From Acidobacteria bacterium bin61 (GTDB taxonomy: Bacteria > Acidobacteriota > Vicinamibacteria > Marinacidobacterales > SMYC01), in NCBI GenBank assembly GCA_963578475.1, contig CAUZCL010000005.1, forward strand, positions 60,530 to 124,529: 64,000 nucleotides of DNA. Reading direction: 5' to 3'. This document shows positions 154 to 27,130 of the stretch, in pieces; position 1 is the stretch's first letter; each line of letters begins with the position of its first letter. The position numbers and the translations under genes are program-made. The notes under the pieces were generated by a model. That model saw nothing but the letters and a program-made list of their open reading frames with translations, was not told the origin of the DNA and ran no database searches.

Positions 154-840
154 TCATATCGATCCGTGACCGTCCGGAAAGAGCGGGAGCGGCCTCGGCT
201 CGAGCTCCTCCAGCACTTTCCATCCCCAGCTACGGCGCGTCTCGTCCGGTAAACGCTGATATCGCTCGTGATAGCGCCGCAGGAATGCCGCCGTCGCGGC
301 ATTGACGTAGCCGCCGCCGCGGATGGGTCCGAACTCCGCGTCGTAGCGCGCGGCAATCTCTCCGAAAAGGGCGTCCCGCCGCACTTTCGCGATGATGGAC
401 GCGGCGGCGACAGCGACGTGGTGCTGTTCGCCGAAATTGAACGCCCGCAGATGGGCGTAGCGTTGTCGCAGCAGCCCGAAGACTTTCTCGCCATCGGCAA
501 TGATCCGTTTGACGGCGACGGTTCGGTCGATGATGTTCGTGGCCGCGATGCGCTCGAGCTCGTTGAGAAGCCCATGGTCGCAATAGCGGTCCACCTCCTC
601 GTGGTCGCATACCTCCACCTGAACGTCTTCCGCAAGGCGGCCGATATGCTCCGCGAGCTCGGCACGCCGCGCACGCGCTTCCTTCCCCGCCCCGAACTCC
701 TTCGAGTCCACGACCCCACGCCGGGTCAGCGCCGAAGTGGCTTGAGGCTTGAGAACAACACCCGCCACTACCATCGGTCCGAGAACCGGTCCTCGCCCTG
801 CCTCGTCGATGCCGAGAATCACGACCCTATGCTTTCGCAT
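154..840 (-). CDS. rnhB: Ribonuclease HII
   Basis: Translation MRKHRVVILGIDEAGRGPVLGPMVVAGVVL... matches the RNase HII N-terminus (DEAGRG catalytic motif). The ATG at 838-840 was chosen; the listed ORF extension upstream overlaps the next gene and lacks homology. Confidence 0.85.
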   Translation of the reverse strand: MRKHRVVILGIDEAGRGPVLGPMVVAGVVLKPQATSALTRRGVVDSKEFGAGKEARARRAELAEHIGRLAEDVQVEVCDHEEVDRYCDHGLLNELERIAATNIIDRTVAVKRIIADGEKVFGLLRQRYAHLRAFNFGEQHHVAVAAASIIAKVRRDALFGEIAARYDAEFGPIRGGGYVNAATAAFLRRYHERYQRLPDETRRSWGWKVLEELEPRPLPLFPDGHGSI

Positions 841-933
841 CAGGGGCACCGGTTGCAACGATAAACGCAACCCGCTAAAAGTATGACCGAGCTCACAGGG
901 GTTCCAACGAGAAGCGAAGGAGACTCTCAGAAT

Positions 934-2391
934 ATGAGTGAGGCGGAGACAAAAGGACAGGGCGTCTACAACGTCGTGGTCATTGGTGCCGGCACAGCGG
1001 GTCTTGTCACTGCGGCGGGGACGGTCGGGCTCGGTGGACGCGCCGCGCTCATCGAGGCCAAGAAAATGGGAGGCGATTGCCTGAACTACGGATGCGTTCC
1101 GTCCAAGGCGCTGATCTCCTCCGCGAAGCTCCTCGAGCGCATCCGCCACGCCAATAAGATGGGTCTCGGGAAGATGGAGCCCTCCTTCCAGTTCGAAGAT
1201 GTCTTTGCGCGCATGCGCGAGCGGCGCGCCAAGATTGAGCCGAACGACTCCGTCGAGCGGTTCGAAGGCCTGGGGGTCGACGTCTTCCAAGCGCGCGCGA
1301 AGTTCGTTTCACCTCATGAAGTGGAGCTCGATGACGGCACGCGTCTGAAAGCCCGCAATTTCGTTGTCGCGACCGGGACGACAGCCCTCGTGCTCCCCAT
1401 CCGGGGGCTCGACACCGTGCCCTATTACACGAATGAGACGATCTTCGACGAGATGCCGACGGCGCCTTCCTCGATGATCATTCTCGGTGGAGGGCCGATC
1501 GGGTGCGAGTTTGCACAAGTCATGAGTCGGCTCGGCGTTCGCGTCAAGCTCGTGGAGCTTCTCCCCCGGCTTCTTCCTCGAGACGACGCCGATGCGAGCG
1601 GACTCATAACAGAACGCTTCGCCGACGAAGGCATCGAAGTCTTGACGGGCACGAAAGCCACACGCTTCGAGCACAAAGACGGCGTCACCATCGCGACGGT
1701 CGAGAATGCGAGCGGCGAGCACGAGCTTCGAGCCGAAGCATTGCTCGTAGCCACGGGCCGGAAGGCCAATGTCGAGAACCTCGGTCTCGATGAAGCAGGC
1801 ATCGCCTACGATTACCGCGGCGTCACCGTCGACGAGACGCTCACCACATCGCAGTCTCACATCTTCGCATGCGGGGACGTCGCTGGGCCCTACCAGTTCA
1901 CGCACACGGCGGACTACCAGGCGCGCGTCGTCGTACGGAACATTCTCATCCCTTGGTTCAAGTCGAAAGCCGACTACACCTGGGTGCCTTGGGTGACCTA
2001 TACCGACCCCGAAGTCGCGCAGTGCGGCCTAACGGAGGACGAAGCCAAGAAGAAAACCGTCGCCTACGACGTCTTCCGCTTCGACTGGAAGGATTTGGAC
2101 CGAGCCATCACCGACAGCGAAACCACGGGCTTCGTCAAAGTTCTCACCAAGAAAGACACGGACCGAATCCTCGGAGCTACCGTCGTTGGTTTTCATGGTG
2201 GCGATGTCATGCACGAGCTTCTCGTCGCAGGCAAACACGGCATCGGCCTCTCGAAGCTTTCCGGAACGATCCACGCGTATCCGACACTATCGGCTTGCGT
2301 GCAGCGCGTCGCCGATGCGTACCAGAAAACGAAGCTCACGCCCACGGTCGCGAACATCTTCAAGTGGCTCTACAAATGGAGGCGCGCCTGA
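934..2391 (+). CDS. Class I FAD-dependent pyridine nucleotide-disulfide oxidoreductase (dihydrolipoamide dehydrogenase/mercuric reductase-like, no metal-binding extensions)
   Basis: GxGxxG FAD fold (VVVIGAGTAG), redox-active disulfide GGDCLNYGCVPSK, second NAD(P) Rossmann fold, C-terminal HAYPTLSA dimerisation motif. The ATG at 934 has an AGGAG RBS 11 nt upstream; 883 is the alternative ORF start. Confidence 0.8.
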   Translation: MSEAETKGQGVYNVVVIGAGTAGLVTAAGTVGLGGRAALIEAKKMGGDCLNYGCVPSKALISSAKLLERIRHANKMGLGKMEPSFQFEDVFARMRERRAKIEPNDSVERFEGLGVDVFQARAKFVSPHEVELDDGTRLKARNFVVATGTTALVLPIRGLDTVPYYTNETIFDEMPTAPSSMIILGGGPIGCEFAQVMSRLGVRVKLVELLPRLLPRDDADASGLITERFADEGIEVLTGTKATRFEHKDGVTIATVENASGEHELRAEALLVATGRKANVENLGLDEAGIAYDYRGVTVDETLTTSQSHIFACGDVAGPYQFTHTADYQARVVVRNILIPWFKSKADYTWVPWVTYTDPEVAQCGLTEDEAKKKTVAYDVFRFDWKDLDRAITDSETTGFVKVLTKKDTDRILGATVVGFHGGDVMHELLVAGKHGIGLSKLSGTIHAYPTLSACVQRVADAYQKTKLTPTVANIFKWLYKWRRA

Positions 2392-3083
2392 TGGCAGCCA
2401 AGAAATATCTCAAGGCCGTCATCGTCGTGTTGGCGATCGCCACCTTCGCTCTCGCCGCACGACAGCTCCCGATCGAGAATTGGCTCGAATCTCTCAATGC
2501 CTGGGTCACGGATTTAGGTGTTCTCGGCATGGTCATCTTTGCGCTCGTCTATGCTGCAGCGACCGTGCTGATGGTCCCGGGCTCGCTTCTTACCCTCGCC
2601 GGCGGCGCGGTGTTCGGACTCGTTCCCGGTTTCGTCACGGTCTGGAATGGCGCGACCCTCGGCGCCGCGCTCGCCTTTCTCGTTTCGCGCTTTCTCGCAC
2701 GCAAACGGGTCGAGGCGTGGATTCAAGAGAAGCCGTCGTTCAGCGTCATCGACAAAGCCGTCGCCAGACAAGGCTGGAAGATCGTCTTTCTCACACGGCT
2801 ATCACCCGTCTTCCCGTTCAACTTTCAGAACTACGCTTACGGTCTGACGAGCGTTTCCTTCTGGCACTACGTGCTCGCCTCGTGGACGGGCATGATCCCC
2901 GGCTCGTTTCTCTATGTTTATTTCGGAACCCTCGGGCGAAGCGGGCTCGAAGCCGCGTCGGGCACAGCGAGCGAGCAGACGCTGAAGCTCGCGCTGCAGG
3001 TCGTGGGCCTTTTCGCGACCCTCGCGGTGACGGTGCTCATTACCCGCACGGCGAAAAAAGCGCTAAACGCGGCCGGAGTCTAG
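2391..3083 (+). CDS. DedA/TVP38/TMEM64 family integral membrane protein
   Basis: Multi-TM translation with the DedA-type pattern (GxxxG-rich helices, FLxRxLARK). Start overlaps the upstream stop as ATGA (translational coupling). Confidence 0.75.
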   Translation: MAAKKYLKAVIVVLAIATFALAARQLPIENWLESLNAWVTDLGVLGMVIFALVYAAATVLMVPGSLLTLAGGAVFGLVPGFVTVWNGATLGAALAFLVSRFLARKRVEAWIQEKPSFSVIDKAVARQGWKIVFLTRLSPVFPFNFQNYAYGLTSVSFWHYVLASWTGMIPGSFLYVYFGTLGRSGLEAASGTASEQTLKLALQVVGLFATLAVTVLITRTAKKALNAAGV

Positions 3084-3103
3084 CCGGCCGAGGAGGTGTG
3101 CAA

Positions 3104-3460
3104 GTGGAGATTACGTCGGTCAAAATCATGCTCATGGTCCAGGACATGCCGCGCGCGAGCCGCTTTTATCACGATGTCATCGGGCTCGAGGTAAAGTTCG
3201 AATCGCCGGAGTGGACTGAGCTCGCCTACGGAGACGCCATCGTCGCGCTTCACGGAGGCGGCAAGGGAGAGTTTCGCACCACCGGATTGGGCTTCCAAGT
3301 GAAAGACATCCGCGCTGCCTGTCGCGAGATGGAAGCCGGAGGCGGGAAAATCGCCTCACCGCCGATGGAGCGACCGGGCGAGCTGATCATCCTCGCCCAG
3401 ATCGTCGACACCGAAGGCAATCAGTTCTCGCTCACCGAGTACCTCGGCACTAGTGCTTAG
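3104..3460 (+). CDS. VOC/glyoxalase-bleomycin resistance family protein
   Basis: 118-aa product with the paired beta-alpha-beta-beta-beta module pattern (FYHDVIGLEV ... GNQFSLTEY). GTG start preceded by GAGGAGG. Confidence 0.6.
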   Translation: MEITSVKIMLMVQDMPRASRFYHDVIGLEVKFESPEWTELAYGDAIVALHGGGKGEFRTTGLGFQVKDIRAACREMEAGGGKIASPPMERPGELIILAQIVDTEGNQFSLTEYLGTSA

Positions 3461-3491
3461 CAAGATATTCGTCGGCGTGATACGTTTGCGC

Positions 3492-4504
3492 ATGCGCGTT
3501 CGGATGCCGCTACTCGTTCTACTCGCAGCCGCGTTCTCGTCTCCCGCCTGCCAAGACGTGCACGCGCCCGCGGTGGCGCCCGAGTCAGCCGATAACAAGC
3601 TCATCCAAAACCGCGGTGAAGGCAAAGATCGGTGGTGGGACAAGCTCCCGCGCGCGCGGCGTGAAGCGCTTTCACCAAGGTCGAACAAAGTCAGGACTGG
3701 TTCGAGGTCTACGAGCTCCAGCCAGGGCTTTTCGCTATCTATGAGCCGGGCCAGTTCGAGGAAGTGATCTCCTATCTTTTCGTCGGAACGGAAAAAGCGC
3801 TGCTCTTCGACGCGGGCATCGGTGTCAGCAATATGCGGCAAGTCGTCGCCGAGCTCACCGAGCTCGAGCCCATCGTCGTCAACTCTCACGCCCACTATGA
3901 CCATGTCGGCGGCAACCACTCTTTCTCGAAGGTCAGAGGCACCGAGACCAAGTACACCGCGCGCAACGCCAAGGGTCGCGCCCACGAAGCCGTCGCCGAG
4001 TTCGTCGGCGAAGGGTGGATTTGGAAGCCTACGCCGGACGGGTTTTCGAAAGAGAGCTACCGCTCTGAAGCGTTCGACGTCGTGGAAACGATACGGGACG
4101 GCGATGTCTTCGATCTGGGTGGCCGGAGTCTCGAAGTCCTTTGGACACCCGGGCACGCACCTGATGCGCTGTGTTTGCTCGATCGCGAGAACCGGCTTCT
4201 TCTCACCGGCGACACGTTCTACCCAGCAACGCTCTACGCCCATCTCGACGGGTCGGACTTCGCGGCTTATCGCGCGACGGCCCGGCGCCTATCCGCGCTC
4301 GCTGAAAAAGGCACCGACCACGTCGACACGCTGCTTCCCGCGCATAACGAGCCGTGGGTCTCGAGCGACTACTTAGAGAAGATGCGCGACGCGTTCGATT
4401 CCATCGCCCACGACGAGACCCCGTTCGTGCTCACGGACGGCAATCGCGAATACAAGTTCGATGGATTCACGATTCTGACACGCGATTCGCCAGCGACCCA
4501 GTAG
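3492..4504 (+). pseudogene. Secreted MBL-fold metallo-hydrolase, apparently frameshifted near 3650-3665
   Basis: Intact ORF 3764..4504 carries HAHYDHVGG (HxHxDH) and downstream His/Asp ligands. The expected MBL N-terminus (FEVYELQPGLFAIYEPGQFEEVISYLFVG) is encoded upstream in the same frame but without a start codon. A signal peptide (MRVRMPLLVLLAAAFSSPAC) is encoded in another frame (ORF 3453..3767). The frames meet in a cgcgcgcgcgg repeat. Confidence 0.55.
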
Positions 4505-4977
4505 TTACACGTCGGGTGGTAGAGAAGGCGGACGCGGAACGGCGCTCAGCCAACGCTTTTTGCGAGGCTTTCCGCTACCGGGTCTCTCCCACCCTTTCTT
4601 GCCGCCGGGGATCAGGCGGAACCGTGGCCGCGCGGCGCGCGGCGCGCACGCGTCGCAGAAACCCTGCCATTTGTCCGTGGGGCTCGAGCAGGATCGACAA
4701 GAACCGAACATAGCATAACTCCAAGTTGATAATTATAAGAGGGTTCAAGAAACTGTCCGGGGGGCCAATAGCCTCGAAACCCGCGCTGAGATTAACTCGA
4801 AACGTGCCTTGGACTCAAGCGGCGTGGGAAAAGCGCCTCCACGACCGTGGTGAGCGTCTCACCGCAATCGGCCTGGACCTTTACATCAAGCTCGCCATCC
4901 GCGCGGGTTTTGCCGAGATTCACCATCACGACGGGAATCTGGTTTTGCGCCGCGCGTTTCACGAATCGGTAGCCCGA

Positions 4978-5726
4978 CTAGACCATTAGCGAAGACCCGA
5001 CAACCAAAAGCGCGTCAGCCTCATCAACACGGGACATCGCTTCGGTCACGAAATCGCGAGGTACCGATTCGCCGAAGAAAACGACGTCGGGCTTCAAGAC
5101 CCCGCCGCAACACGCGCAATCGGGCGTACGAAAACGCTCTAGCTCCAGAGCGGCAGTATCAGTCTCGAGATCGGCGTCTCCGTCAGGCGCGAAGGCCGCC
5201 GCTTGCGCTCCAAAGGCGGGGTTCGCCTCGAAAAGCCGGTCCTGAAACTCGAGCCGGGGGCGCACGTCGCCACAATCGACGCAACGAACGCGGTCGATCC
5301 GTCCATGAAGATCGTTGACGTTGCGGCTTCCCGCCTTCTGGTGAAGGCCATCCACGTTTTGCGTGATGAGATAGCGAAGCGCGCCGTGCTCTTCGAGATG
5401 GGCGAGAGCTCGATGAGCGGCGTTCGGGCGAGCTTTCTCGACGAGACTCCACCCACCATGCTACGCGCCCAATAGCGCCGCCGAGCCTTCTCGCTTCCGA
5501 GAAAAGTTTGGTAGCGCATCGGCGGATTACGCTTCCACTCACCATCACCGTCGCGATAATCGGGAATCCCGGATGCGGAGCCGCAGCCAGCACCCGTGAG
5601 CGCCACGAGCCGCTCGGCGCGCGCGATGACCTCGGTCAGAGCGTGGAAGGCATGGAGGTCTTCACCGCCGCGGGATAGACTAGTGCTCGACGTTATGATG
5701 TGGCGCCTCACTTTGCTCGTTTCCAT
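4978..5726 (-). pseudogene. Sir2-family NAD-dependent protein deacylase (CobB/NpdA-like), split by a -1 frameshift in a short homopolymer (C-run on + strand) near 5450
   Basis: N-terminal ORF (5139..5726) gives LTGAGCGSASGIPDYRDGDGEW ... RRRYWARSMVGG. C-terminal frame (4978..5355 and upstream) gives GGWSLVEKARPNAAHRALAHLEEHGALRYLITQNVDGLHQKAGSRNV..LHG ... CxxC...CxxC ... VVGSSL. The two halves join in a gtgggtgg tract (one G missing relative to a continuous frame). Confidence 0.7.
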
Positions 5727-7005
5727 TCTTATCGCGAGCTCCGCCGATGCGCAGCCTCAAAGCAAGGCTCCGGACATCTGGGTCGAGCTCAAACGAAATA
5801 TGCACGCGCTCAGAGTCGCGATTCCCGAGCTCTCGGCGGCGAGCCCGGATGTGCGCGCCGACGCGGCAGAGGTACATCGCATAATGTTCGATGATATCTC
5901 GTTTGCCGCGGTTTTTCGGATCGTGGACCCGGAGCGGTACCAGCTCGTGAAAACTCTATCCGCCGGCTTCGACTATCACGGCTGGGAATCCATTGGCAGT
6001 GACATCGTGATTACCGGAACGGTGTCGCGGGAAAACCAAGCGCTTCGCGCTGCCATCCATGTTCACGCCGTGGAAAACGAGAAGACGGCCTTCTCGACCG
6101 TTTACACAGAATATCAAGGCTCGACGCGCAACCTCGCGCACAACGTCGCCAATCGCATTTTAGCCCAGTTCGGTCTCGTCGGGCTCGCAACGACCGACAT
6201 CGTCTTCGCGAGCAATCGAGACTCGAAGACCGGTAGCAAGAACCTGTGGATGATGGATTACGACGGCTTCGGCCAACGCGCGATCACGCGCAACCGCTAC
6301 CTCGATTTTCAGCCCCGCTTCAGCCCGGACGGAGCGAAGCTGAGCTTCTTGTCCTACCCGAAGAAAAACGCACCTCCCGTGCTCGCGATCCACGGCGAGG
6401 GGCCGCTCCTCGAAGGTCCGGGCATGCTGTTCTCGGCCTCATGGTCCCCTGACGGAAAACGCATCGCCTTTTCGTCGACGCGCGACGAAGCGGGTAACGC
6501 CGAGATCTACGTCATGAGTCGTGACGGGACCGCTATTCGTCGATTGACCCATCACCCGGGCATCGACGTCTCGCCTAGCTGGTCGCCGACTGGAAGAGAG
6601 CTCGTCTTCACGTCCGAAAGGACGGGGTCGCCGCAGATCTTTGTGATGGACGCCGAAGGTTTGAACCTGCGGCGGCTCTCACGTGGGGGGACGTATAACG
6701 CCGAGCCCTTCTGGTCCCCGTCCAAGATTCACCAAGAGATCGCCTATGTGTCACGCGTCGAAGGACGCCGGTTCGACATCGTCGTCTACGACCTCGCAAA
6801 CCGACAATTGCGCCAACTAACGTCTCAGTCGAGGATGAACGAGGGCGCGAGCTGGTCTCCCGACGGACGCCATCTCGTCTTCACATCCACCCGCACCGGC
6901 GAACCGCAAATCTTCATCATGAATCGAGACGGCGCCAACCAGCGGCAACTCACCTTCAAAGGCGCAAACACCACCCCGAGCTGGTCTCCCCTAAACCGCA
7001 ACTAG
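5695..7005 (+). CDS. TolB-like periplasmic protein (TolB N-terminal domain plus PD40 beta-propeller)
   Basis: Signal peptide MMWRLTLLVSILIASSADAQ, then repeated PD40 blades (SWSPDG, SWSPTG, FWSPS, SWSPDG, SWSP). Start moved to 5695 from the longer ORF 5596. Confidence 0.7.
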   Translation: MMWRLTLLVSILIASSADAQPQSKAPDIWVELKRNMHALRVAIPELSAASPDVRADAAEVHRIMFDDISFAAVFRIVDPERYQLVKTLSAGFDYHGWESIGSDIVITGTVSRENQALRAAIHVHAVENEKTAFSTVYTEYQGSTRNLAHNVANRILAQFGLVGLATTDIVFASNRDSKTGSKNLWMMDYDGFGQRAITRNRYLDFQPRFSPDGAKLSFLSYPKKNAPPVLAIHGEGPLLEGPGMLFSASWSPDGKRIAFSSTRDEAGNAEIYVMSRDGTAIRRLTHHPGIDVSPSWSPTGRELVFTSERTGSPQIFVMDAEGLNLRRLSRGGTYNAEPFWSPSKIHQEIAYVSRVEGRRFDIVVYDLANRQLRQLTSQSRMNEGASWSPDGRHLVFTSTRTGEPQIFIMNRDGANQRQLTFKGANTTPSWSPLNRN

Positions 7006-7599
7006 GACGATCTCGAACGTCAGCCCGAGCTTCTCTTTCGTTTTGACGGAGCCGCCGAGCGCCGAGAGTTGCGGCACACCCCAGCGTTTTGTGTCGAGCT
7101 CGAGCTCACCCGTCACGGTCATCCGCTCACCGGAAAACTCGAGTGTCACGGGAACCTTCAGTGGATGGCTTTCGCCTCGTAGTTTCAAGGTGTTTTCGAG
7201 CTCGAGTCGCATTGCTTCGCCGCGCTTATCGCGGACGCGGACCCGGGAGGACGTAAAGATTATCGTGGCGTATTCCGAGAGGGCGAGCACCTTGGTCTCC
7301 ATCTCGCCTTGGACCTTCGCGCGGTCGTCCTCGTCCAGCTTTTAGTCGGCAACGCTCAGCGAGGTCGGGTCGACCTCGAGCGTGAAACGGGAGCTCTCCG
7401 GCTCTTTGCTATTCCAGACCACCGTCCCAGTGAAAGCCCCGACGCGGATCCGGTGGTCGTGGCCAAACACCTTGAACAGTCCCGCGCGCCCAACCTCCAC
7501 TTCGAACTGACTTTCGTCCGGAGCGACGCGATAGGTTGTCGTCGTTTGCGGAACAACAACGACAAAAAACCCCGTCAAAAGCGATGAAATCCGCATCAT
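6991..7599 (-). pseudogene. YceI-like periplasmic protein interrupted by an in-frame TAA (7342-7344)
   Basis: ORFs 7342..7599 and 6991..7302 are in the same frame. Read-through gives a roughly 200-aa YceI-like protein (signal peptide, then VFGHDHRIRVGAFTGTVVWN ... and TVTGELELDTKRWGV). Confidence 0.7.
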
Positions 7600-7695
7600 A
7601 ACCCTCCCCTGGCGCCGGTCGCCCGATATAGAGATAATCTCAGACTAGCGCGGCACCGTTCGCCGGGCTGTTAACTAATACGCAACGCAATCCCC

Positions 7696-9511
7696 ATGGG
7701 AAGAATATCGAGCTACCTCCGCGTCGGGTTTCTGCTGTTGATCCTCAACAGCGGTTATCTACTCTCCAGAAATGAAGCGTCCATATTCTACGCGGCCAAC
7801 GTGCTGTTTCACGTCTCTCTCGCCCTCGGCCTCACTGGGCTCGCCATCTACGTCTACCGGCGTCTTGCGAAGAGCACCTTGTCCACATCGTCCTCGGTGC
7901 GAGCGCGCTCACGGGCGTAGCGCTCGTGGTTCTCGGAGCAGGCACGGCGACGCGCCCCCTTCTTCTCGCGCACATAGCCGTTGCCTCGCTCGCCGCCGCC
8001 GTCGTCGCGCTCTCGAGCAAGCTGCCGTCATCGTTCTCGGACTCGCCGCGCTCCTGCCTCTTGCCACGATCATGCGGAACAGCCTGACGCCTCCTCCCAC
8101 ACTCAATGCTGCGTTTGCGCCGATCTCGATGGAAGGTGAAGCCATGGGCGGCGCGAGAGGGCTTTTTTTCGTCTTCGGCCGAGACGCTCGACGGTGCGAC
8201 CATCCCGGCCGAGTTCTTCATGGGAAGTAAAGAATGCGGGCGCTGCCACACCGACATTTACAACCAATGGGAAAGCTCCGCCCACCGCAAGGCTTCGTTC
8301 AATAACCAGTGGTACCGAAAGTCCATCGAGTACATGCAAAGCGCCGTCGGAACGGAGCCGTCCAAGTGCTGCGGCGGCTGCCACGATCACGCGATCTTGT
8401 TCTCCGGCATGATGGACACGCCCATCGAGGAGATTATCGACCGGCCCGAGGCGCATGCCGGCCTCTCATGCACATCGTGCCACTCCATCGTGCGCGTAAA
8501 GAACACGATGGGGAAGGCAGGCTTCGTTATCGAATTTCCCGCTCTCCACGATCTCGCGACGAGCGAGAAACCCGTTATCCGAGCGCTCCATGACGTGCTC
8601 TTGCATCTCGATCCCGAGCCGCATCGGGAGACGTTTCTGAAGCCTCTGCACACGGGCGATAGCTCAGCCTTTTGCTCGACCTGTCACAAAGTCCACCTCG
8701 ACGCGCCGGTCAACCACTATCGCTGGATTCGTGGCTTCAATAGCTATGACAATTGGCAAGCGAGTGGCGTCTCCGGCGAAGGCGCGCGATCGTTCTACTA
8801 CCCCGACACGCCGAAAACTTGCACCGATTGCCACATGCCGTTCGTCCCGGGCTACGATCCGGCGGCGCCGGCAGGCCTCCTGCGATCCCACCCGCTTTTG
8901 CCGCGGCCAACACCGCGATTCCGACCGCCTATGGGGACGACGCGCAGCTCGAGGCCGTTCGAGACTTTCTTCAAGCAGGGCAAGTGACCGTCGACCTTTT
9001 CGCCCTCGTACGATCCGACGAGCCCGAGGCGGGGCAAGAGCTCGGCTCTCGAGGTCAGCAGCGCCAGCTAGCGAGCACCTTTGCCGTCGGAGAGGAAGCC
9101 GCGATGGCCATCCCCGGCCGTATGATGTCGCTGGCTGTTGCCTAAGAGGTGATCGCCCCTCTCGATCGGGCGCAGCCGTCGGTGATGCCGGGCGAGTCGG
9201 TGCGGATCGACGCCGTCGTGCGCACCCGCAATGTCGGGCATTTCTTTCCGGGCGGCACCGTCGACGCGTTCGACGTATGGGTCGAGCTGAAGACCGTCGA
9301 CAACGAAGGTCGCACCATCTTCTGGAGCGGCTATACCGATGATGACGGAAAAGGGCCGGTCGAGCCCGGCGCGCATTGCTATCGCTCGCTATTGCTCGAC
9401 GCCAAAGGCCAGCCCATCAACAAACGGCGGTGGCTCGTTCGAAGATGTGACCGCGGGCTCCGGCTTCGACCGCGCGGTCTATGGGATGGGCGTCGCGGTC
9501 GGCGATTATGA
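7696..9511 (+). pseudogene. Membrane-anchored multiheme cytochrome c (5 CxxCH) with a C-terminal beta-sandwich-like region; degraded by at least four frameshifts and one in-frame TAA
   Basis: TM helices are encoded successively in three frames (7696-7870, 7870-8010, 8010-8165), with a shift at a T7 run 8161-8167. Heme motifs CGRCH, CGGCH, CTSCH, CSTCH, CTDCH lie in ORF 8106..8987. The continuation is in frame 2 (8753..9145), followed by TAA at 9143-9145 and ORF 9149..9511. Confidence 0.55.
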
Positions 9512-10781
9512 CGGCGACGGTGACCGGGACGTCTATGTCACCGTGCTCGGTACAAACCTCTTGTTCCGTAACGACGGCGACGCCAAGTTCACCGAAATTG
9601 GGAAAGATGCTGGCGTCGACCACGACGGGTTTGGCTCGAGTGCGACCTGGCTCGACTACGACAAAGATGGCGACCTCGATCTCTTCGTGCTCAACTATGT
9701 TCAGTGGTCCATCGAAGAGGATCTCTTCTGTGCGCTCGACGGCCAGAACAAGAGCTATTGCACCCCCGAATCTTACGAAGGCGCGAGCGCGGTTCTCTAT
9801 CGCAATGACGGCAGAGGAAAGTTCACCGACGTGACCAAAGCTTCAGGGCTCGAAAACCCACGCGGCAAGGGACTCGGCGTGGCGGTGTTCGATTTCGATC
9901 TCGATGGCTGGCTCGATATCGCGGTCGCCAACGACACCCAGCCCAACTATCTCTATCAGAACAAGGGCAACGGAACCTTCGAAGATATCGGCGTGCTGTC
10001 CGGGATTGCGTTCGCCGAAAATGGCGCGGCGCGCGGCGCAATGGGGATCGACGCCTCCGACTACGACGCAAGCGGCCGACAGAGCCTCGTCATCGGCAAC
10101 TTTTCGAACGAGATGCTCTCGCTCTACCACAACGAAGGGCCCGGCTTTTTCATCGACCAGGCGCCTGTCTCCGAAATCGGCCGCGCGAGTCTCGTGACCC
10201 TGTCTTTCGCTTCGTTTTTATTCGACTACGACCTCGACGGCCACGAGGACATCTTCGTCGCGAACGGGCATGTCGAGAGCGACATTCACAACGTTCAGCA
10301 GCGCGTGAGCTACGCGCAGCCGCCGCATTTGTTCAAGAACCTCGGCGATGGCCGTTTTCGCGAAGTCACGCAGGAGATGGGCGAGCGCTTCGCCCTCCCG
10401 ATTGTCGGGCGCGGCGCGGCCTATGGCGATATCGATGGCGACGGCGATCTGGACCTCGTGGTGACGACGAGCGGAGGCCCGCCCCGGCTATTTCGAAACG
10501 ATGGAGGGAGCTCGAGCAATTGGATTGGATTCCAGCTTCGGGGCACGACGTCCAACCCGGAAGCCATCGGCGCGTTCGTGCGGGTCACAGCGGCAGGGCG
10601 CACCGAGACGCGGATGGTCAAGAGCGCTTCTGGCTATTGCTCCCAGAGCCAGCTTGCCGTCATCGTCGGGCTCGGCGCCACCGAAAAAGCCGACAAGGTC
10701 GAGATCTCCTGGCCGTCGGACGCCACGCAAACCATCGACGCCCTGGAGTCGAGGCGCATCCACGAAATCATCGAGCCCTAG
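9339..10781 (+). CDS. CRTAC1-family protein (FG-GAP repeats plus ASPIC/UnbV C-terminal domain); N-terminus lacks a signal peptide and may originally have been fused to the upstream cytochrome ORFs
   Basis: Repeated FG-GAP calcium-binding motifs (DYDGDGDRDVYV, DYDKDGDLDLFV, DFDLDGWLDIAV, DIDGDGDLDLVV) and C-terminal UnbV_ASPIC-like sequence (GAFVRVTAAGRTETRMV...SQSQLAVIVGLG). Apparent frame junction with ORF 9149..9511 near 9420-9430. Confidence 0.75.
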   Translation: MMTEKGRSSPARIAIARYCSTPKASPSTNGGGSFEDVTAGSGFDRAVYGMGVAVGDYDGDGDRDVYVTVLGTNLLFRNDGDAKFTEIGKDAGVDHDGFGSSATWLDYDKDGDLDLFVLNYVQWSIEEDLFCALDGQNKSYCTPESYEGASAVLYRNDGRGKFTDVTKASGLENPRGKGLGVAVFDFDLDGWLDIAVANDTQPNYLYQNKGNGTFEDIGVLSGIAFAENGAARGAMGIDASDYDASGRQSLVIGNFSNEMLSLYHNEGPGFFIDQAPVSEIGRASLVTLSFASFLFDYDLDGHEDIFVANGHVESDIHNVQQRVSYAQPPHLFKNLGDGRFREVTQEMGERFALPIVGRGAAYGDIDGDGDLDLVVTTSGGPPRLFRNDGGSSSNWIGFQLRGTTSNPEAIGAFVRVTAAGRTETRMVKSASGYCSQSQLAVIVGLGATEKADKVEISWPSDATQTIDALESRRIHEIIEP

Positions 10782-10980
10782 TGCCAAGGACCTACGCGCC
10801 ACACTCCTGGAATTTCGCGATCGATACGCCTATTTCCATATCGAGGTCGTCTTTTCGCGCAAGGAGCGTTTCGAGCGTGAATGCAAGCTGTACCATCGGA
10901 TGGGTGGCGATCGAGGTCAGCTCGACAACGAGCTCCATCCGCTGCCGCCCCGGGGCCGCAGCTAAAGTGCCCTGTCTGCG

Positions 10981-12624
<1,644 letters not shown>

Positions 12625-12681
12625 TTTTTTCTTGTCTCCAGTTGCAACTAGCCCTTCGGCATGCTTCTATCACAAACGCAC

Positions 12682-13593
12682 ATGCGATTCATGGTCTTTG
12701 GCGCCGGCGCTTTGGGAAGCCTCGTAGCCGCACGCCTATCTTCCGCCCATGAGGTCACTCTCGTCGGACGTCGCGAGCACGTTCTCGCCATCCGTGCATC
12801 TGGCCTGCGTGTAACAGGGCGCACGGAGTGCATCGCTACGACGATCGCGGCTGTCACAGAACCGATCGAGACACCACCCGACGTTGTGCTCGTTACCACC
12901 AAATCCTATGGGACGGCCGGAGCGGTCGAAGCTCTCGCAGGGTTCTCGAAACAGTCGATATTCGTGTCGCTCCAAAACGGTCTCGGGAACGAAGAGATTC
13001 TCGCGGAACGTGTTGAGAACGTTCTCGGCGCCGTGATCAATCAAGGTGTGACGTTCTTGGAGCCAGGCGCTGTCTATCACGCTGGCGAAGGCGAGACCGA
13101 GCTCGGAGCGTTCCAGGGAACGGCACCCGGTGATGCCGAACGGGTCGCCTGTGCGTTTCGCGAGACGGGTCTAGAAGCGCGCGCGGTCGAGGACATCCGC
13201 TCCAGTATCTGGCTCAAAGTCATCCTCAACGCCGCTGTGAACCCGCTCACGGCGCTGCTCGCAAAGCGTACGGGCGAGCTCATTGGCGACCCCGCCCTCG
13301 AAAGCGCCATCCGCCTCATCGTTCACGAGTCCGTCGCGATCGCGCGGGCCGCAGGCGTAGCGCTCGAGGAAAATACCGTCCTCGAGCAAATTTGGAGCGT
13401 TGCGCGCGCGACTAAAGACAACAAATCAAGCATGTTACAGGATCTTCAAAGAGGGCGACGCACTGAGATCGACGCCATCAACGGAGCGCTCTTGGACCGC
13501 GCGCGCTCTCTCGGCGTCGCCGCCCCCCAAAACGAGCTATTATTTCACCTAGTTCGAGCCGCCGGACAGAACAAAACGCCACGTCCAACGTAA
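12682..13593 (+). CDS. panE: 2-dehydropantoate 2-reductase (ApbA/PanE family)
   Basis: N-terminal Rossmann MRFMVFGAGALGS, ketopantoate-reductase family C-terminal helical domain. ORF listed from 12661; the internal ATG at 12682 fits the family N-terminus better. TAA stop. Confidence 0.75.
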   Translation: MRFMVFGAGALGSLVAARLSSAHEVTLVGRREHVLAIRASGLRVTGRTECIATTIAAVTEPIETPPDVVLVTTKSYGTAGAVEALAGFSKQSIFVSLQNGLGNEEILAERVENVLGAVINQGVTFLEPGAVYHAGEGETELGAFQGTAPGDAERVACAFRETGLEARAVEDIRSSIWLKVILNAAVNPLTALLAKRTGELIGDPALESAIRLIVHESVAIARAAGVALEENTVLEQIWSVARATKDNKSSMLQDLQRGRRTEIDAINGALLDRARSLGVAAPQNELLFHLVRAAGQNKTPRPT

Positions 13594-13622
13594 CAACAAT
13601 GTTCAGCCGCGCCTAGGGGGGA

Positions 13623-14237
13623 GTGCCCATGAGCCAGGAACGTCGTCGCCAGTCGATCCCGCGACTGGTCTTGGTGCCTGCCCTCGTTACTCTTGCGCTC
13701 ACCCAGCTTCGACTTACCGGAGATCTGCTCGGCTGGTCCGAGATGGGGCTGCCTTTCGAGATCGCGTGGCTCGTTCCGCTCTTTGGCGCCTATTTTGCGC
13801 TCCATCTGCGGAAAGTGGACGACTCCACGCCGAGCGCAGCACGCGTGCTCCGCGGCACACTTCTCCCGCTCGTGCTCTTTATCACCGGGCTCATCCTGCT
13901 CCGCCCGACGTCCGGCGGGATGGGGCTTTTGTCGCTCATCGCCATCGTCCTCGTGCAACGGAATTGGTCGAGACTCGGAAACGCTCTCCTCACTTACGCG
14001 TTCGCGGCGCGCCTTCCGGTGATCATCACGATGCTCGCCGCCACCCTCGGCCGCTGGGACACGGTCTTCGATGTGTCACCCTACAACACGCTCGCGGGCA
14101 CGCTGCCACAGTTGACGGTCTGGCTCGCATTCACCGTTGTCGCTGGCAGCGTGGCAGCGTCGGCCGCCCTCGCCGTGCGCAAGCGGTACCGCGCTGAGGA
14201 AACGAGGCCGTTTCCTGGCTCCACTGCTCCGGGCTAA
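13623..14237 (+). CDS. Hypothetical integral membrane protein (about 5 TM helices)
   Basis: Hydrophobic segments throughout the 204-aa translation; no recognised catalytic motif. Confidence 0.45.
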   Translation: MPMSQERRRQSIPRLVLVPALVTLALTQLRLTGDLLGWSEMGLPFEIAWLVPLFGAYFALHLRKVDDSTPSAARVLRGTLLPLVLFITGLILLRPTSGGMGLLSLIAIVLVQRNWSRLGNALLTYAFAARLPVIITMLAATLGRWDTVFDVSPYNTLAGTLPQLTVWLAFTVVAGSVAASAALAVRKRYRAEETRPFPGSTAPG

Positions 14238-14378
14238 CAACCACCGATCGGGGCGGCCGGAAGCCTTCCACTTCCCGAGGTCTGGGACCGTTCTTGTCAT
14301 ACCGAACACGATGGGATGCAGAATTAGTGAATGACTCGGTAGGATTTGCTTTGACCGCCCTCCCGCTGGAGCAGATTC

Positions 14379-14900
14379 TCAGAGGCGCGGGTCTTCGAGC
14401 CAAGCATCGAGCTCGGAGAGCCGTGCTGCCTCTTTTGCCCATCGACGCGCATCGTCGCCCAGCGAGGGATGCTTCTTGAGCAGAACCGCAACGTCCAACA
14501 AGTGTCGCGCGGCGCCGGCGCGCAACTTTAGACGCAGCAAGTCCGGTAAGTCGACGACGCGCAGCTCGCCTCCACCGGGTATCGGCACGACCGTCGCGTT
14601 CTCCCACTGAATCGCCACAGGCGGTGGCAAGATTTGAAAGGACACGTCCCCGACGCTCCCGTGAATCACCCAAGGGAGGTCCCCCGCGAGTACGTCTCCG
14701 CGTCTTAGCTCGGTCTCAATCCCATCATTCGTCAGAAGTCGTTGGAGCTCCTCAGGGCTTTCGCTCGATACGAAATCAACATCCTCCGTCGCGCGGACGT
14801 GACCCCAGGCAGAGACGGCCAGCCCATCGATGAGAAGACTCTCCGCCCCAAGGATCGAAGCCACCCGGACGGCCGCTTTAGCGAGGTCATCGTCGTTCAT
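14379..14900 (-). CDS. Minimal nucleotidyltransferase-fold protein (Pol-beta superfamily)
   Basis: hG[S]x9-13 D-h-D pattern: LIDGLAVSAWGHVRATEDVDFV. Internal ATG at 14900 chosen (ORF listed to 14954). Confidence 0.4.
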   Translation of the reverse strand: MNDDDLAKAAVRVASILGAESLLIDGLAVSAWGHVRATEDVDFVSSESPEELQRLLTNDGIETELRRGDVLAGDLPWVIHGSVGDVSFQILPPPVAIQWENATVVPIPGGGELRVVDLPDLLRLKLRAGAARHLLDVAVLLKKHPSLGDDARRWAKEAARLSELDAWLEDPRL

Positions 14901-15146
14901 GACTCGCTTCGACCTTCTCACGAAGCAACGCGCAAAAAGCACTGAGCGCGGCACATCGAAGGATGCGCTCGCCCATTTTCACAGCAAGCTGAGCACGCGT
15001 CCGGTCTTCAGCCTGCATTCGATCGATTTTCTTCGCCACGGAGCTCATGTTCGCCCGAGTGGCCACGTAAGAGCCACCACCCGCTTGTTCCCGCCTCGGC
15101 CGGCGGATATCATGCGCAAACATTGCCACGAATAAGGGGGGCCACC

Positions 15147-17252
15147 GTGTTACGCCGCTTTCTTGTCACCGTCACCGTCTCCCTGGTGGCTGCCGCGAGC
15201 CTCGCGCAGTCGCCGTTCACCCTCGAGCAGATCTTGAGCGCGCCATTCCCCACCACCCTCGTCGCGGCGCCGAATCACGGAAAGCTCGCTTGGGTGCAAA
15301 ATGCCGAGGGGAAACGGAACATTTGGGTAGCGCTAGAGCCGGGCTACGAAGCGCGTCAGCTCACACGCTACGACAAGGATGACGGCCAGGAGATCACCGG
15401 GCTTCACTTCGGTCCGGGGGCGAACCACATCGTGTTCGTTCGCGGCGGAGCACCGAACCGCGCGGGCGAGACCCCAAACCCGCGCAGTGAGCCCGACGGC
15501 GTCGAGCGTTCGATCTGGATCATCGAAGTAGCTAGCGGCGAGCCGCACGAGCTCGCCGAAGGCAGCAGCGCGGTAATCTCTCCGGACGGCGAGACGGTGG
15601 CCTTCGTACACGACGACCAAATCTGGACCGTCCCCGCGGTCGACGAAGGCGAGCCGAAACAGCTATCCGAAACGCGCGGCCGCGCCTCGGAGCTACGGTG
15701 GCCACCTGATGGCTCGAAGCTCGCCTTTGTGAGCCGCCGCGGCGATCACAGCTTCGTTGGCGTCTACAGTTTCACCGAAAAGCGGATTCACTATCTGGAT
15801 CCAGGCCTCGGACGCGATGACGATCCCGTATGGTCCTCCGATGGCGACGAAGTCGCCTTTATCCGCATCCCCAACGAACGCCAACGTCTGCCTTTCGGTC
15901 CACGAAGGGCGGGAGTGCCTTGGTCCATCCGCATCGCCCATGCCGAGACCGGGGAAGGCCGGCTCGTCTTCGAAGCAGACCACGGCATGGGAAGCGTCTT
16001 CCACAGCGTGTCCGCTCAGAACCAGCTCATCTGGGGAGAGGGTAATCGACTGGTGTTTCCCTGGGAGAAAGATGGCTGGACACATCTTTATTCGATCCCG
16101 ACCTCGGGCGGCTCGGCAACGCTTCTGACGCCCGGGGATTTCGAAGTCGAGCATGTGTTCGCGAGCTCGGACAGAACTGAGCTTCTTTACTCATCGAACC
16201 AGGACGACATCGACCGCCGGCACATCTTCCGCGTCGCGGTGTCAGGAGGGCCGCCGCGGGCCGTGACGAGCGGCAACGGGATCGAATGGTCGCCCGTCAT
16301 GACAGGCGATGGCGGTGCCATCGCCTATCTGGCCTCTACCGCCAAAACTCCCGCGCACGCAAAGATCCGCATCGGGACGAGTGGCGACCGTCCGCTCGCC
16401 GCATCGTCGCTGCCGGCCGACTTTCCCAATTCCCTCGTCGAGCCCGAGCAAGTGCTCCTCTCCGCGGCCGACGGAATGCGCTTCCACGGCCAGGTCTTCC
16501 TGCCCGCGAATCACCGCAGCGGCGAACGCCATCCTGCCGTTATTTTCTTTCACGGGGGCTCGCGCCGACAGATGCTGCTCGGTTGGCACTATATGGGCTA
16601 CTACCATAACGCCTACGCACTCAATCAATATCTCGCCAGCCGCGGCTACGTGGTGCTCTCCGTCAATTATCGTAGCGGCGTGGGCTACGGCATGGAGTTC
16701 CGCGAAGCGCTCAACTACGGCGCGAACGGCGCGAGCGAGTTCCAGGACGTCGTAGGCGCCGGGCTGTATTTGAGAGGCCGGGACGATGTCGACCCCGACA
16801 AGATTGCACTCTGGGGAGGCTCCTATGGCGGCTACCTCACTGCTCTTGGCCTCTCGCGCGCGCCCGATCTGTTCGCCGCCGGCGTCGATATCCACGGGGT
16901 CCATGACTGGAATATCGTGATCCGAAACTTTGTTCCAACCTATGACGCCGAGAAGCACGCCGCCTTTGCACGGCTCGCTTTCGAATCGTCACCCATGGCA
17001 TCCATCGACGGCTGGCGAGCTCCCGTGCTCTTGATTCACGGCGACGACGATCGCAATGTCCCCTTCAGTGAGTCGGTCGATCTCGCCGAAGCACTCGCCA
17101 AACGGAATGTCGATTACGAGGAGCTCGTCTTTCCCGACGAGGTCCATGGATTCTTGCTTCACGAGAACTGGCTGAAGGCCTTTCGCGCGGCGGCCGACTT
17201 TATCGACCGCAAGCTCGAAGCCGCGCCATCGTCCACGGAGGAACAACCATGA
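15147..17252 (+). CDS. S9 family serine peptidase (beta-propeller plus alpha/beta-hydrolase; dipeptidyl/acylaminoacyl peptidase-like), secreted
   Basis: Signal peptide MLRRFLVTVTVSLVAAASLAQS after GTG at 15147 (AAGGGGGG RBS). N-terminal propeller, catalytic GGSYGG Ser motif, Asp and His (EVHGF) in the C-terminal domain. Confidence 0.85.
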   Translation: MLRRFLVTVTVSLVAAASLAQSPFTLEQILSAPFPTTLVAAPNHGKLAWVQNAEGKRNIWVALEPGYEARQLTRYDKDDGQEITGLHFGPGANHIVFVRGGAPNRAGETPNPRSEPDGVERSIWIIEVASGEPHELAEGSSAVISPDGETVAFVHDDQIWTVPAVDEGEPKQLSETRGRASELRWPPDGSKLAFVSRRGDHSFVGVYSFTEKRIHYLDPGLGRDDDPVWSSDGDEVAFIRIPNERQRLPFGPRRAGVPWSIRIAHAETGEGRLVFEADHGMGSVFHSVSAQNQLIWGEGNRLVFPWEKDGWTHLYSIPTSGGSATLLTPGDFEVEHVFASSDRTELLYSSNQDDIDRRHIFRVAVSGGPPRAVTSGNGIEWSPVMTGDGGAIAYLASTAKTPAHAKIRIGTSGDRPLAASSLPADFPNSLVEPEQVLLSAADGMRFHGQVFLPANHRSGERHPAVIFFHGGSRRQMLLGWHYMGYYHNAYALNQYLASRGYVVLSVNYRSGVGYGMEFREALNYGANGASEFQDVVGAGLYLRGRDDVDPDKIALWGGSYGGYLTALGLSRAPDLFAAGVDIHGVHDWNIVIRNFVPTYDAEKHAAFARLAFESSPMASIDGWRAPVLLIHGDDDRNVPFSESVDLAEALAKRNVDYEELVFPDEVHGFLLHENWLKAFRAAADFIDRKLEAAPSSTEEQP

Positions 17253-21715: not shown

Positions 21716-23199
21716 GCTTTGCATTTTTGGGGCTGCTCCTGCTCGCTTCGACCATGCCCGTCGTGGGCGAAGCCGAGCTCGATAACGGCCTTCGCATCCT
21801 CGTGCTCGAGGACCATTCGCAGCCTCGGGTCGCATGCAAGATCCTCACGCGCTTCGGAGCGATAGTGGAAGAGCCAGGACGCTTCGGGAGCGCCCATTTT
21901 CTCGAGCATCTGATGTTCAAGGGTACCGCCACCATCGGCACCCATGACTGGGAAGCCGAAAAGCCTATCCTCGACGAGATCCTCGAGCTCGAGCGCGACA
22001 TCATTCAGGAGCGGAACCGCGCTCGGAGTGAGATGCGTGAGCGGGGTGTTTATCACGACTTCAAGCACGCCGAGACGACGCCCGAGCTCGAGCACTTGAT
22101 GAGCATCCTGCACGAGAAAATCATCGAGGACGAGCGCTATGTCGACACCGAAGAGAGCAACAGCTACTACCAGCGCACGGGCGGTACGCGCCTGACGGCC
22201 CAAACCGAGCAGGAATATATGAAGTTCGACATCAACTTGCCGTCGGAGAAGCTCGAGATGTTCTTCCGCATCGAGGCCGACCGCATGGTCAACAGCCGCT
22301 GGCGCCGATTCGACTCCGAAGTCGGCATCCTCTGGGAGCAACGGCTCGGCGATTTGAACCGGGCCGACACAGTCTTCAAAGAAGCCGTGGCCTCCGCGAG
22401 CGGCGTCGTCTCGCCGGTCTATTGGAACGAAGGCTACGAGACGGACTTCCCGATTCTGGAGCGCAACTACACACGTCGGCTCTACGAGACCTGGTTCGTC
22501 CCCAACAACACGATCGTCGTGCTCGTCGGCGACACCACGCTCGAGGAAGCCGAGCGGCTCACCAAGAAATATTTCGACCGCATCCCGCGCAGCGAGGAGA
22601 CGCACGACACGTTCGCGGTCGAGCCGCGCCCGGACCACTATGTGCGCGTCGAGATGCAGACGCCCCATTTCGGGCCGGCCCTCGACATCCGTCACCGCAT
22701 CCCCGGTGTCGGTCATCCCGACCGCCCGGCTGTCGAGCTGCTCGGCGAGATCCTCGGCGACCCGCGCGGCCCCATTGGCGCGGCCACGGTCGGTGAAGGC
22801 CTCGCGACGAGCCTCGCCTCCAACACCGTCGTGACCCACACGAACCGCTTCAGCTTCCCCGCCACGCTCAACGTCGTCGCGCATGGAAGTAACCTCGAAG
22901 CCTTGGAGCCGGCCATCATCACCACCATGGAGAGTCTGAGAACCGAGCGGGTTACAGACGATGTCATCCGTGCCGCGAAGAAGCGCCGACGCGCTTATTG
23001 GGAGCGCCGCCGTCTGAACTGGGACGACGTCGCCTTCGACATGGGGCACTATGCGATCATGGATAGCTGGCAGACGCTCTTTCGCGAAATGGACGCGCTT
23101 CAAGAAGTGACGGCAGACGAGTTACTGGCGACCGCGAAGAAATATCTCACAAAGACGAACCGCATCGTCGGCGTCGCCACGCGGGAGCCGGTGCAATGA
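21712..23199 (+). CDS. M16 (pitrilysin/insulinase) family zinc peptidase, catalytic subunit
   Basis: Inverted zincin motif HFLEHLMFKGT (HxxEH) plus downstream Glu. N-terminal signal-like segment. Overlaps the upstream stop (ATGA). Confidence 0.8.
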   Translation: MSFAFLGLLLLASTMPVVGEAELDNGLRILVLEDHSQPRVACKILTRFGAIVEEPGRFGSAHFLEHLMFKGTATIGTHDWEAEKPILDEILELERDIIQERNRARSEMRERGVYHDFKHAETTPELEHLMSILHEKIIEDERYVDTEESNSYYQRTGGTRLTAQTEQEYMKFDINLPSEKLEMFFRIEADRMVNSRWRRFDSEVGILWEQRLGDLNRADTVFKEAVASASGVVSPVYWNEGYETDFPILERNYTRRLYETWFVPNNTIVVLVGDTTLEEAERLTKKYFDRIPRSEETHDTFAVEPRPDHYVRVEMQTPHFGPALDIRHRIPGVGHPDRPAVELLGEILGDPRGPIGAATVGEGLATSLASNTVVTHTNRFSFPATLNVVAHGSNLEALEPAIITTMESLRTERVTDDVIRAAKKRRRAYWERRRLNWDDVAFDMGHYAIMDSWQTLFREMDALQEVTADELLATAKKYLTKTNRIVGVATREPVQ

Positions 23200-26938: not shown

Positions 26939-27130
26939 TCACTTCTCTTTGGCGCGGCCAAACTCGGTCTCGCTCATCGGCTTGTCATAATCCGGCTGCC
27001 AGACGCCTTCACCGTCCGCGATTTTCCCTATCGCCCGGGCCATCTCCCGGACGTGCACGGCCACGGAGCCACAGCAGCTTCCGATGTAGTCGACGCCGAG
27101 CTCTTTGGCCTTCCGGGCGAACTCCCCCAT
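26939..27130 (-). pseudogene. Orphan C-terminal fragment of a homocysteine S-methyltransferase domain
   Basis: KELGVDYIGSCCGSVAVHVREMARAI resembles the conserved GGCCGTTPEHI end of Hcy-binding methyltransferase domains. Only 63 aa; no upstream domain. Confidence 0.5.

Follow-up and report, generated by a model that had tools for sequence, protein, structure and literature searches.

The DNA examined here is a 64-kb window of the genome of an uncultured marine Vicinamibacteria bacterium, whose nearest named relatives are “Ca. Marinacidobacterales” metagenome-assembled genomes (MAGs), and our subject is a run of broken genes between 3.45 and 10.97 kb of that window. Six genes in this run are dead, encoding a metallo-beta-lactamase-fold (MBL) hydrolase, a Sir2-family deacylase, a YceI-like protein, a cytochrome with transmembrane (TM), pentaheme, and tetratricopeptide repeat (TPR) regions, a CRTAC1/ASPIC protein, and a PilZ protein. 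Between them they hold about 8 small frameshift events, 4 nonsense codons (TGA, TAG, and 2 TAA), and two deletions (1,247 nt and ~670 nt). These are very probably genuine pseudogenes, fixed in a natural near-clonal population and decaying neutrally after selection on them lapsed. A first-pass annotation made from the letters of the sequence had picked out five disrupted genes, all of which are confirmed by frame displays and Pfam searches of the pieces against uninterrupted orthologs in the relatives L006 and L090, but its account of the damage was incomplete, since two nonsense codons (the MBL TGA and the Sir2 TAG) and the sixth dead gene (PilZ) had been overlooked.

An open reading frame (ORF) listing, a frame plot of GC content at third codon positions, and three-frame displays together reveal five places where the coding signal jumps between frames or crosses stops, each with one recognizable gene, and Pfam finds only partial domains on the pieces of the dead genes. 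The window has a GC content of ~61%, and the broken stretch ranges from 0.57 to 0.66 with no break relative to its flanks. For comparison, L004, L005, and L006 were found by scanning one-genome-per-species contigs with a TolB-like protein encoded within the stretch; they are syntenic with the window at 88–92% nucleotide identity, are labeled “Candidatus Marinacidobacterales” (class Vicinamibacteria), and belong to chromosomes of 9–10 Mb. The key comparator is L090 (ERZ1643211), the contig that encodes cytochrome P0001, which aligns to window positions 761–9427 over 8.67 kb at 98.7% DNA identity; changes were polarized between the window and this sister with L006 as the outgroup. In L006 the genes for the MBL hydrolase (341 aa), Sir2 (306 aa), the TolB-like protein, YceI (201 aa), CRTAC1 (536 aa), and PilZ (~274 aa) are all uninterrupted. 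The comparison with syntenic relatives that the first-pass annotation had proposed finds either intact orthologs or separate deletions of these genes in the more distant relatives, and in the sister L090 the window's lesions are absent or partly shared. Our searches found no literature on “Marinacidobacterales” or on the sample accessions.

Damage in the six genes

The MBL hydrolase pseudogene (3453..4504, plus strand) was delimited from its reading frames, a Pfam Lactamase_B match on a 246-aa core, and alignment to L006 and L090. A frame change had been suspected within a CG repeat near 3655, and the alignment bears this out as an insertion of CG in the (CG)n run at 3649–3650, which is specific to the window; 5 nt downstream of that run, TGG has become TGA at 3662–3664, a change also found in L090. 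An intact allele of the gene exists (P0257, 332 aa, 97% amino acid identity). The spacer between the MBL and Sir2 genes contains a 7-nt tandem duplication (CGCGCGG, 4629..4635) that is again specific to the window lineage. The Sir2 pseudogene (4792..5726, minus strand), likewise delimited from frames, Pfam, and alignment to L090 and L006, has lost one base at 5451/5452, where the coding strand has gone from GTG GGC TGG to GTGGGTGG, and has a TGG>TAG change that reads CTA on the plus strand at 4978–4980. Both lesions are specific to the window, L090 and L006 carrying an uninterrupted 306-aa Sir2 gene, and the Pfam SIR2 match is confined to a C-terminal 125-aa piece (profile positions 86–178). 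The single-base loss that had been predicted near 5450 is real, but the base missing from the coding strand is a C rather than a G.

Amid the dead genes, the TolB-like gene (5698–7005, plus strand) stands outside the decay. It encodes an intact PD40 beta-propeller protein of 435 aa with complete Pfam TolB_N and PD40 domains and a full-length match to L006 at 89% amino acid identity, in agreement with the earlier view that it reads cleanly; it is also intact in L004, L005, L006, and L090, with a ratio of nonsynonymous to synonymous substitution rates (dN/dS) of 0.14. The neighboring YceI-like pseudogene (6991..7599, minus strand), recognized from its frames and from a Pfam YceI match split over 85-aa and 103-aa pieces, has a GAA>TAA change where L006 has GAA within a 201-aa ORF, and this stop is common to the window and L090. 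The first-pass annotation had the in-frame stop correctly at 7342–7344, but because the gene lies on the minus strand the plus strand reads TTA there.

Next, on the plus strand, lies what is left of a membrane-anchored pentaheme cytochrome gene of the ~907-aa type with beta-sandwich and TPR regions (7696..9426), resolved from its frames, indel lists, and a repaired translation. Its lesions are a −1 at 7881, an in-frame −6 at 7999, a −1 at 8022, two single-C losses on either side of a T7 run (net −2), two +1 insertions at about 8889–8896 (CC>CCC and TTT>TTTT, net +2 near 8892), and a GAA>TAA change at 9143–9145; the 3′ ~320 codons, including the TPR region, are deleted. Every one of these lesions is absent from L090. 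At least four frame changes and the TAA at 9143–9145 had been reported before and hold up, but the T7 run lies at 8163–8169 rather than 8161–8167 and is itself unchanged, the shift there coming from the flanking C losses. The repaired translation retains five CXXCH motifs, in a gene that the window copy splits over four frames, and it is 96% identical to the uninterrupted 740-aa P0001 and 88% identical to the 907-aa P0002; a 293-aa piece matches Pfam Cytochrome_C554. When the repaired translation was used as a protein query, 7,408 homologs were returned, typically of 900–960 aa with a TM segment, a multiheme cytochrome, a beta-sandwich, and TPR. The window copy is a relic of this multiheme cytochrome-TPR family (~900–960 aa) and not a functional member of it. 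One of the nonsynonymous changes of the dead cytochrome, a window-specific TGG>TGC at 8369, turns the second heme motif from KWCGGCH into KCCGGCH.

The cytochrome ends at the junction of the 1,247-nt deletion (9426/9427; 1,212 nt when measured against L006 rather than L090), which has 2–3 nt of microhomology (CGG). This deletion removed the last ~320 codons of the cytochrome, the spacer, and the first ~78 codons of CRTAC1, and the cytochrome is now fused out of frame to CRTAC1. The CRTAC1/ASPIC gene (9427..10781, plus strand) retains Pfam FG-GAP_3 and UnbV_ASPIC domains and lacks those first codons, which include the signal peptide. By tblastn it matches only residues 81–536 of the L006 protein; the called 480-aa ORF begins within out-of-frame cytochrome DNA, and full-length orthologs in L006, L092, and L090 have 536–540 aa. 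With the domains of a CRTAC1/ASPIC-UnbV protein (~540 aa) present and the signal peptide deleted, the window gene no longer counts as a member of that family. Its N-terminus had already been recognized as missing, but alignment to L090 and L006 shows the cause to be the 1,247-nt deletion and not a frameshift near 9425.

The PilZ relic (10782..10965, plus strand), identified from the alignment of the relatives, consists of the junction of the ~670-nt deletion at 10782–10789 and the last ~58 codons (10789–10965) of a gene for ~275 aa. The deletion took the first ~210 PilZ codons, and the window matches only residues 208–274; L004, L005, L006, and L092 have 665–730 extra nt at this junction, encoding the PilZ protein. 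Since in L092 the TPR end of the cytochrome gene overlaps the start of CRTAC1 by 4 nt and PilZ follows 38 nt further on, the cytochrome-TPR, CRTAC1, and PilZ genes probably form one transcription unit that decays together.

Reproducibility, timing, and selection

Exact-protein look-ups found the same fragmented genes on contigs of four assemblies from three pipelines (ENA ERZ27247690 and ERZ27247711, both built with MEGAHIT, Logan SRR9039929, and JGI 3300031801), and these contigs are 100% identical to the window over 2106–10565 or 6305–14987. Because the four assemblies are identical across the lesions, the lesions are not consensus errors. They extend beyond homopolymer indels to point nonsense changes and clean deletion junctions, and the MBL TGA and the YceI TAA are also present in L090, which is 1.3% diverged and comes from a different dataset (ERZ1643211). 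The suggestion of a locally poor consensus or collapsed strain variation is thus refuted at the contig level. In the 8.67-kb alignment to L090, the 4.7 kb of dead sequence contains each of the 8 small-indel sites and the two lineage-specific nonsense changes, and none of these lies in the ~3.9 kb of PyrRedox, VTT, glyoxalase, and TolB-like genes; by our own arithmetic the chance of such clustering is 0.54^10, or ~0.002. The uninterrupted neighbors are the TolB-like, PyrRedox, VTT, glyoxalase, ilvD, ApbA, and peptidase genes, so that the earlier description of the flanking oxidoreductase, ilvD, and peptidase genes as intact stands.

At the right-hand side of the stretch, contig L003 from the same sample (ERZ27247711 k141_1608234) is 100% identical to window positions 10594–22624, a span that takes in the junction of the PilZ deletion. 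The final 328 nt of L003, corresponding to window 10266–10593, are 13% divergent, mostly at third codon positions, and the best match among the available relatives is at most 91%; two further contigs (ERZ27247711 and JGI) stop at 10559–10565. By sequence, the divergence of L003 within CRTAC1 looks like a recombination boundary or an alternative haplotype. Neither an exact 41-nt pattern from 10266–10593 nor the deletion junction was matched in one collection of metagenome contigs, but these negatives carry no weight, as that collection evidently does not include the sample: the JGI contig with the junction came to light by another route.

With L006 as the outgroup, 55 substitutions over 8.67 kb fall on the window branch and 33 on the L090 branch, and all small indels map to the window branch, in dead DNA. 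Every window frameshift is missing from L090, and so are the stops in Sir2 (TAG) and the cytochrome (TAA) and the 1,247-nt deletion; L006 agrees with L090 at those sites, and these lesions therefore arose later, on the window's own branch. The MBL TGA and the YceI TAA are the earliest lesions, since they are shared with this 98.7%-identical sister. Decay thus began before the window and L090 split and continued afterward. The ~670-nt PilZ deletion followed the split from L092 (95.7% nucleotide identity), either before or after that from L090.

The pairwise dN/dS values that had been suggested as a check were computed against L006 and give no pseudogene signal, the broken genes ranging from 0.10 to 0.27 and the flanks from 0.07 to 0.26. 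Such values are uninformative here because the decay is recent and amounts to a few percent of the divergence from L006, and the changes were therefore polarized with L090 and L006. The dead DNA then has 33 window-branch substitutions in 4.69 kb (0.70%) and the flanking genes have 10 synonymous ones in ~1,045 sites (~0.96%); these rates, and the expectation and omega that follow, are again our own arithmetic. Lineage-specific nonsense changes number 2 against ~1.7 expected under neutral drift. In the cytochrome, the window branch has 10 nonsynonymous changes (including the stop) to 4 synonymous and the L090 branch 8 to 2, ratios that on these few changes appear close to neutral on both branches. 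On the window branch, the intact flanks (883–3460 and 5698–7005) have 12 nonsynonymous and 10 synonymous changes (omega ~0.44, versus a long-term 0.14–0.22), a pattern that could reflect recent mutations not yet purged or purifying selection that is weak because the population is clonal.

The same neighborhood is damaged in several relatives. L005 lacks the cytochrome, CRTAC1, and the 5′ third of Sir2, and its YceI gene is fragmented. L004 has lost most of the MBL gene and the first 180 codons of CRTAC1, its PilZ gene is frameshifted, and its YceI gene and the cytochrome's 5′ half have given way to non-homologous DNA. Besides the two shared stops, L090 has a single frameshift in the cytochrome, at the start of the TPR region, and the L006 cytochrome has its own two frameshifts, one near codon 80 within a CCC run and the other inside the TPR region; in L092, CRTAC1 and PilZ are intact. 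The 90%-identity cluster of the cytochrome mixes several 907-aa members with fragments of 97–766 aa. The replacement DNA in L004 (11318–13988 and 7696–8537) contains a 525-aa ORF without a Pfam match and a 121-aa ORF (L004 13449–13814) that may resemble the four-helix-bundle proteins of 23S rRNA intervening sequences. The 5′ part of the L004 MBL gene is likewise replaced by a 244-aa ORF on the opposite strand without a Pfam match, and we read the 525-aa and 244-aa ORFs as non-homologous replacement DNA.

Competing explanations

The lesions could in principle be an assembly or consensus artefact, arising from collapsed strain variation or systematic indel errors, and near the right edge contigs of two samples do break inside CRTAC1 (10559–10565), where the 13%-divergent alternative contig end points to strain heterogeneity. 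However, the MEGAHIT, Logan, and JGI contigs are identical and show no indel across the neighboring 3.9 kb of intact genes, point nonsense changes and clean deletion junctions are among the lesions, and L090, 1.3% diverged and drawn from a different dataset, has inherited two of the stops. It is not credible that three assemblers repeated a consensus error and that a sister lineage inherited part of it, and we consider an artefact highly improbable. The chances are slimmer still for a local mutational hotspot, due to error-prone repair or transcription-associated mutagenesis with selection unrelaxed. Indels do make up about a quarter of the window-branch events in dead DNA, and several are paired within 10 nt and accompanied by an adjacent substitution (8158–8170 and 8888–8896), but local hypermutation is unnecessary because the substitution rate in dead DNA does not exceed the flanking synonymous rate, and the TolB-like gene inside the stretch is without a lesion and has normal divergence. 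Least probable of all, with almost nothing left to recommend it, is that the interruptions are functional, through phase-variable switching, programmed frameshifting, or stop readthrough. One frameshift does lie in a (CG)n run and others beside the T7 run, but the repeats concerned are very short and the T7 run has not changed, in the MBL gene a TGA follows 5 nt after the CG run, and single genes have up to 7 lesions plus truncations; no ON variant exists in the otherwise identical contigs, and a phase-variable contingency locus is rejected. Programmed recoding and stop reassignment are rejected as well, since the ortholog frames are continuous at every site of interruption, the orthologs have sense codons at the four stop positions, and all three stops terminate long ORFs in the window (TAA 4, TAG 9, and TGA 8 times), which upholds the earlier exclusion of codon reassignment.

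Loss of these genes could also have been selected. Inactivating the cytochrome-TPR, CRTAC1, PilZ, and YceI genes, and perhaps those for the MBL hydrolase and Sir2, would then have been advantageous and would have gone to fixation repeatedly in several lineages. The same genes are indeed destroyed by different lesions in the window, L004, L005, and partly L090 and L006, the cytochrome has an excess of lesions, and the lesion-carrying population is clonal across samples, which is compatible with a sweep. Yet any lesion after the first is neutral anyway, so the multiplicity of lesions is uninformative; both the lesion density (about 1–3 per kb) and the number of nonsense changes agree with the window branch's neutral rate, many members of the clade retain the 907-aa cytochrome, and unrelated remnants occur elsewhere in the window. 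On balance, selected loss strikes us as quite improbable. The first-pass annotation had framed its alternative to a poor consensus as localized pseudogenization under relaxed selection in an island. The pseudogenization holds, but a genomic island or mobile element is rejected, the GC content being flat and the stretch syntenic in relatives (88–99% identity), and the decay is local only in a relative sense, with at least six other remnants in the window. No meaningful direct or inverted repeats bound the stretch (tRNAs were not scanned), the repeat family D1 being the FG-GAP motif inside CRTAC1, and there are no Rfam matches across the whole window.

Several points weigh against neutral decay as we describe it. 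The cytochrome holds 8 of the 11 small-indel events in 37% of the dead length (binomial P ~0.02, post hoc), so that a uniform neutral model fits only loosely; this excess is minor and is left unexplained. The terminal-branch counts are small, and the evidence comes from assembled contigs rather than reads, with the four assemblies possibly overlapping in the read sets of one study and the independent samples numbering at least two. Single-base frameshifts in long-read relatives (L006, L091, and several cluster members) are possibly sequencing errors, for which reason the argument from parallel decay rests mainly on the large deletions of L004 and L005. Finally, the six genes have unrelated annotations, and this account gives no reason why MBL and Sir2 should lose selection along with the rest.

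Neutral decay of genuine pseudogenes nevertheless remains the reading we favor. Selection would have lapsed on a neighborhood comprising the MBL, Sir2, and YceI genes and the co-directional unit of cytochrome-TPR, CRTAC1, and PilZ, after which ordinary mutations (slippage in short repeats, single-base indels, nonsense point changes, and microhomology-mediated deletions) would have accrued approximately neutrally, while purifying selection kept acting on the TolB-like gene and on the housekeeping and peptidase genes at the flanks. The cause would be a lost need for the functions concerned, with the cytochrome/CRTAC1/PilZ trio presumably decaying as a unit, and accessory genes may be eroding more widely in this lineage, with the stretch as one instance.

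Possible wider erosion and known systems

Gene calls and domain scans find at least six further truncated gene remnants elsewhere in the window. Three relics lie side by side between 25760 and 27184: an ADOP permease of which the first 42 and the last ~20 residues survive (25760–26029), the last quarter of a second ADOP permease on the opposite strand to the first (25975–26697; profile positions 616–797 of 803), and the C-terminal ~40 residues of a homocysteine/betaine S-methyltransferase (26942–27184). The others are a Ser/Thr kinase with half of its domain left, the match breaking off after profile position ~141 of 563 (55255–55734), PD40/TolB-like fragments at 61381–61899 and 62705–62965, ~0.8 kb apart with no clean ORF between them, and an AbiEii fragment (14379–14900). 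The stretch at 3.45–10.97 kb is the densest patch of decay rather than the sole one, in a lineage that seems to shed accessory genes more widely.

The combination of cytochrome, TPR, and CRTAC1 appears at two places in the window, intact at one and dead at the other. At the first, an intact gene of another family, for a 596-aa multiheme cytochrome with TPR (27376–29166), sits 6 kb upstream of a pair of CRTAC1 genes, likewise intact (33563–37450). Redundancy through a close paralog is rejected as a candidate, since this cytochrome shares only TPR similarity with the dead one and the CRTAC1 genes are 29–35% identical to the dead copy. Elsewhere, a gene for a 701-aa S9/Tricorn-type peptidase (15147–17252) is intact in the window and is represented in L004 (near 21085), L005 (16150), L006 (20720), and L091 (6098) only by short 5′/3′ remnants, whose breakpoints apparently differ among L004, L005, and L006/L091; the relatives are therefore also losing genes that the window has kept. 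L004, L006, and L091 lack window positions 14258–15082 (~820 nt), which contain a 173-aa ORF that partly matches an AbiEii toxin; either the window lineage gained this DNA by insertion or those relatives deleted it.

The main use of these observations is as an annotation warning and as a small, dated case study. Fragments of the dead genes sit as separate “proteins” in NCBI, JGI, ENA, and Logan (a 246-aa Lactamase_B, a 293-aa Cytochrome_C554, a 480-aa CRTAC1, and 84-aa and 103-aa YceI pieces), and because they are called as proteins, a metabolic reconstruction that relied on Pfam matches would falsely credit this MAG lineage with a multiheme cytochrome, a sirtuin, and an MBL hydrolase. The decay itself is stepwise and dated, with two shared stops followed by ~10 further lesions within ~0.6% divergence, and the parallel loss of the same genes in related 9–10 Mb genomes could seed a study of genome erosion in marine Acidobacteriota. 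A bolder proposal, which we think rather unlikely though worth stating, is that the YceI/cytochrome-TPR/CRTAC1/PilZ group together with MBL and Sir2 would be a hotspot inactivated recurrently and independently of lineage in large-genome marine Vicinamibacteria, where loss of an extracytoplasmic multiheme electron-transfer module might be adaptive after a habitat shift and the lineage as a whole might be in an early, undescribed phase of erosion. The 13%-divergent haplotype abutting at 10594 would then be a hint that the decayed segment is also being replaced through recombination with relatives.

Incipient genome erosion has been seen in Sodalis glossinidius and Mycobacterium leprae, among others. 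It is also known from “Streptomyces philanthi,” which resembles the present case in its frameshift-dominated pseudogenes of accessory, regulatory, and transport functions, its intact core, its large and GC-rich genome, and its split or shortened ORF calls (PMC8092579). The pseudogenes of S. philanthi are reported to be randomly distributed, with one frameshift each on average (PMC8092579). Here, in contrast, six adjacent genes are dead and one of them has at least 7 lesions, within the 64 kb covered. With phase-variable loci the stretch shares one lesion, the unit gain in a dinucleotide repeat, but it differs from them in having several irreversible lesions per gene. Frameshift artefacts of metagenome and long-read assemblies likewise produce runs of short ORFs with partial Pfam domains, but here different short-read assemblers and samples give the same lesions, some of which a sister lineage has inherited. 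In Rickettsia and other bacteria, pseudogenes have been described as decaying neutrally and with a bias toward deletion, and it is this picture that the stretch matches, with its small indels, nonsense changes, microhomology deletions, and net loss (~1.9 kb lost and 13 nt gained). The ratio of indels to substitutions, ~10:28, is on the high side for such decay, on small counts, and nothing essential is different: what we see here is ordinary gene decay, with no new mechanism.

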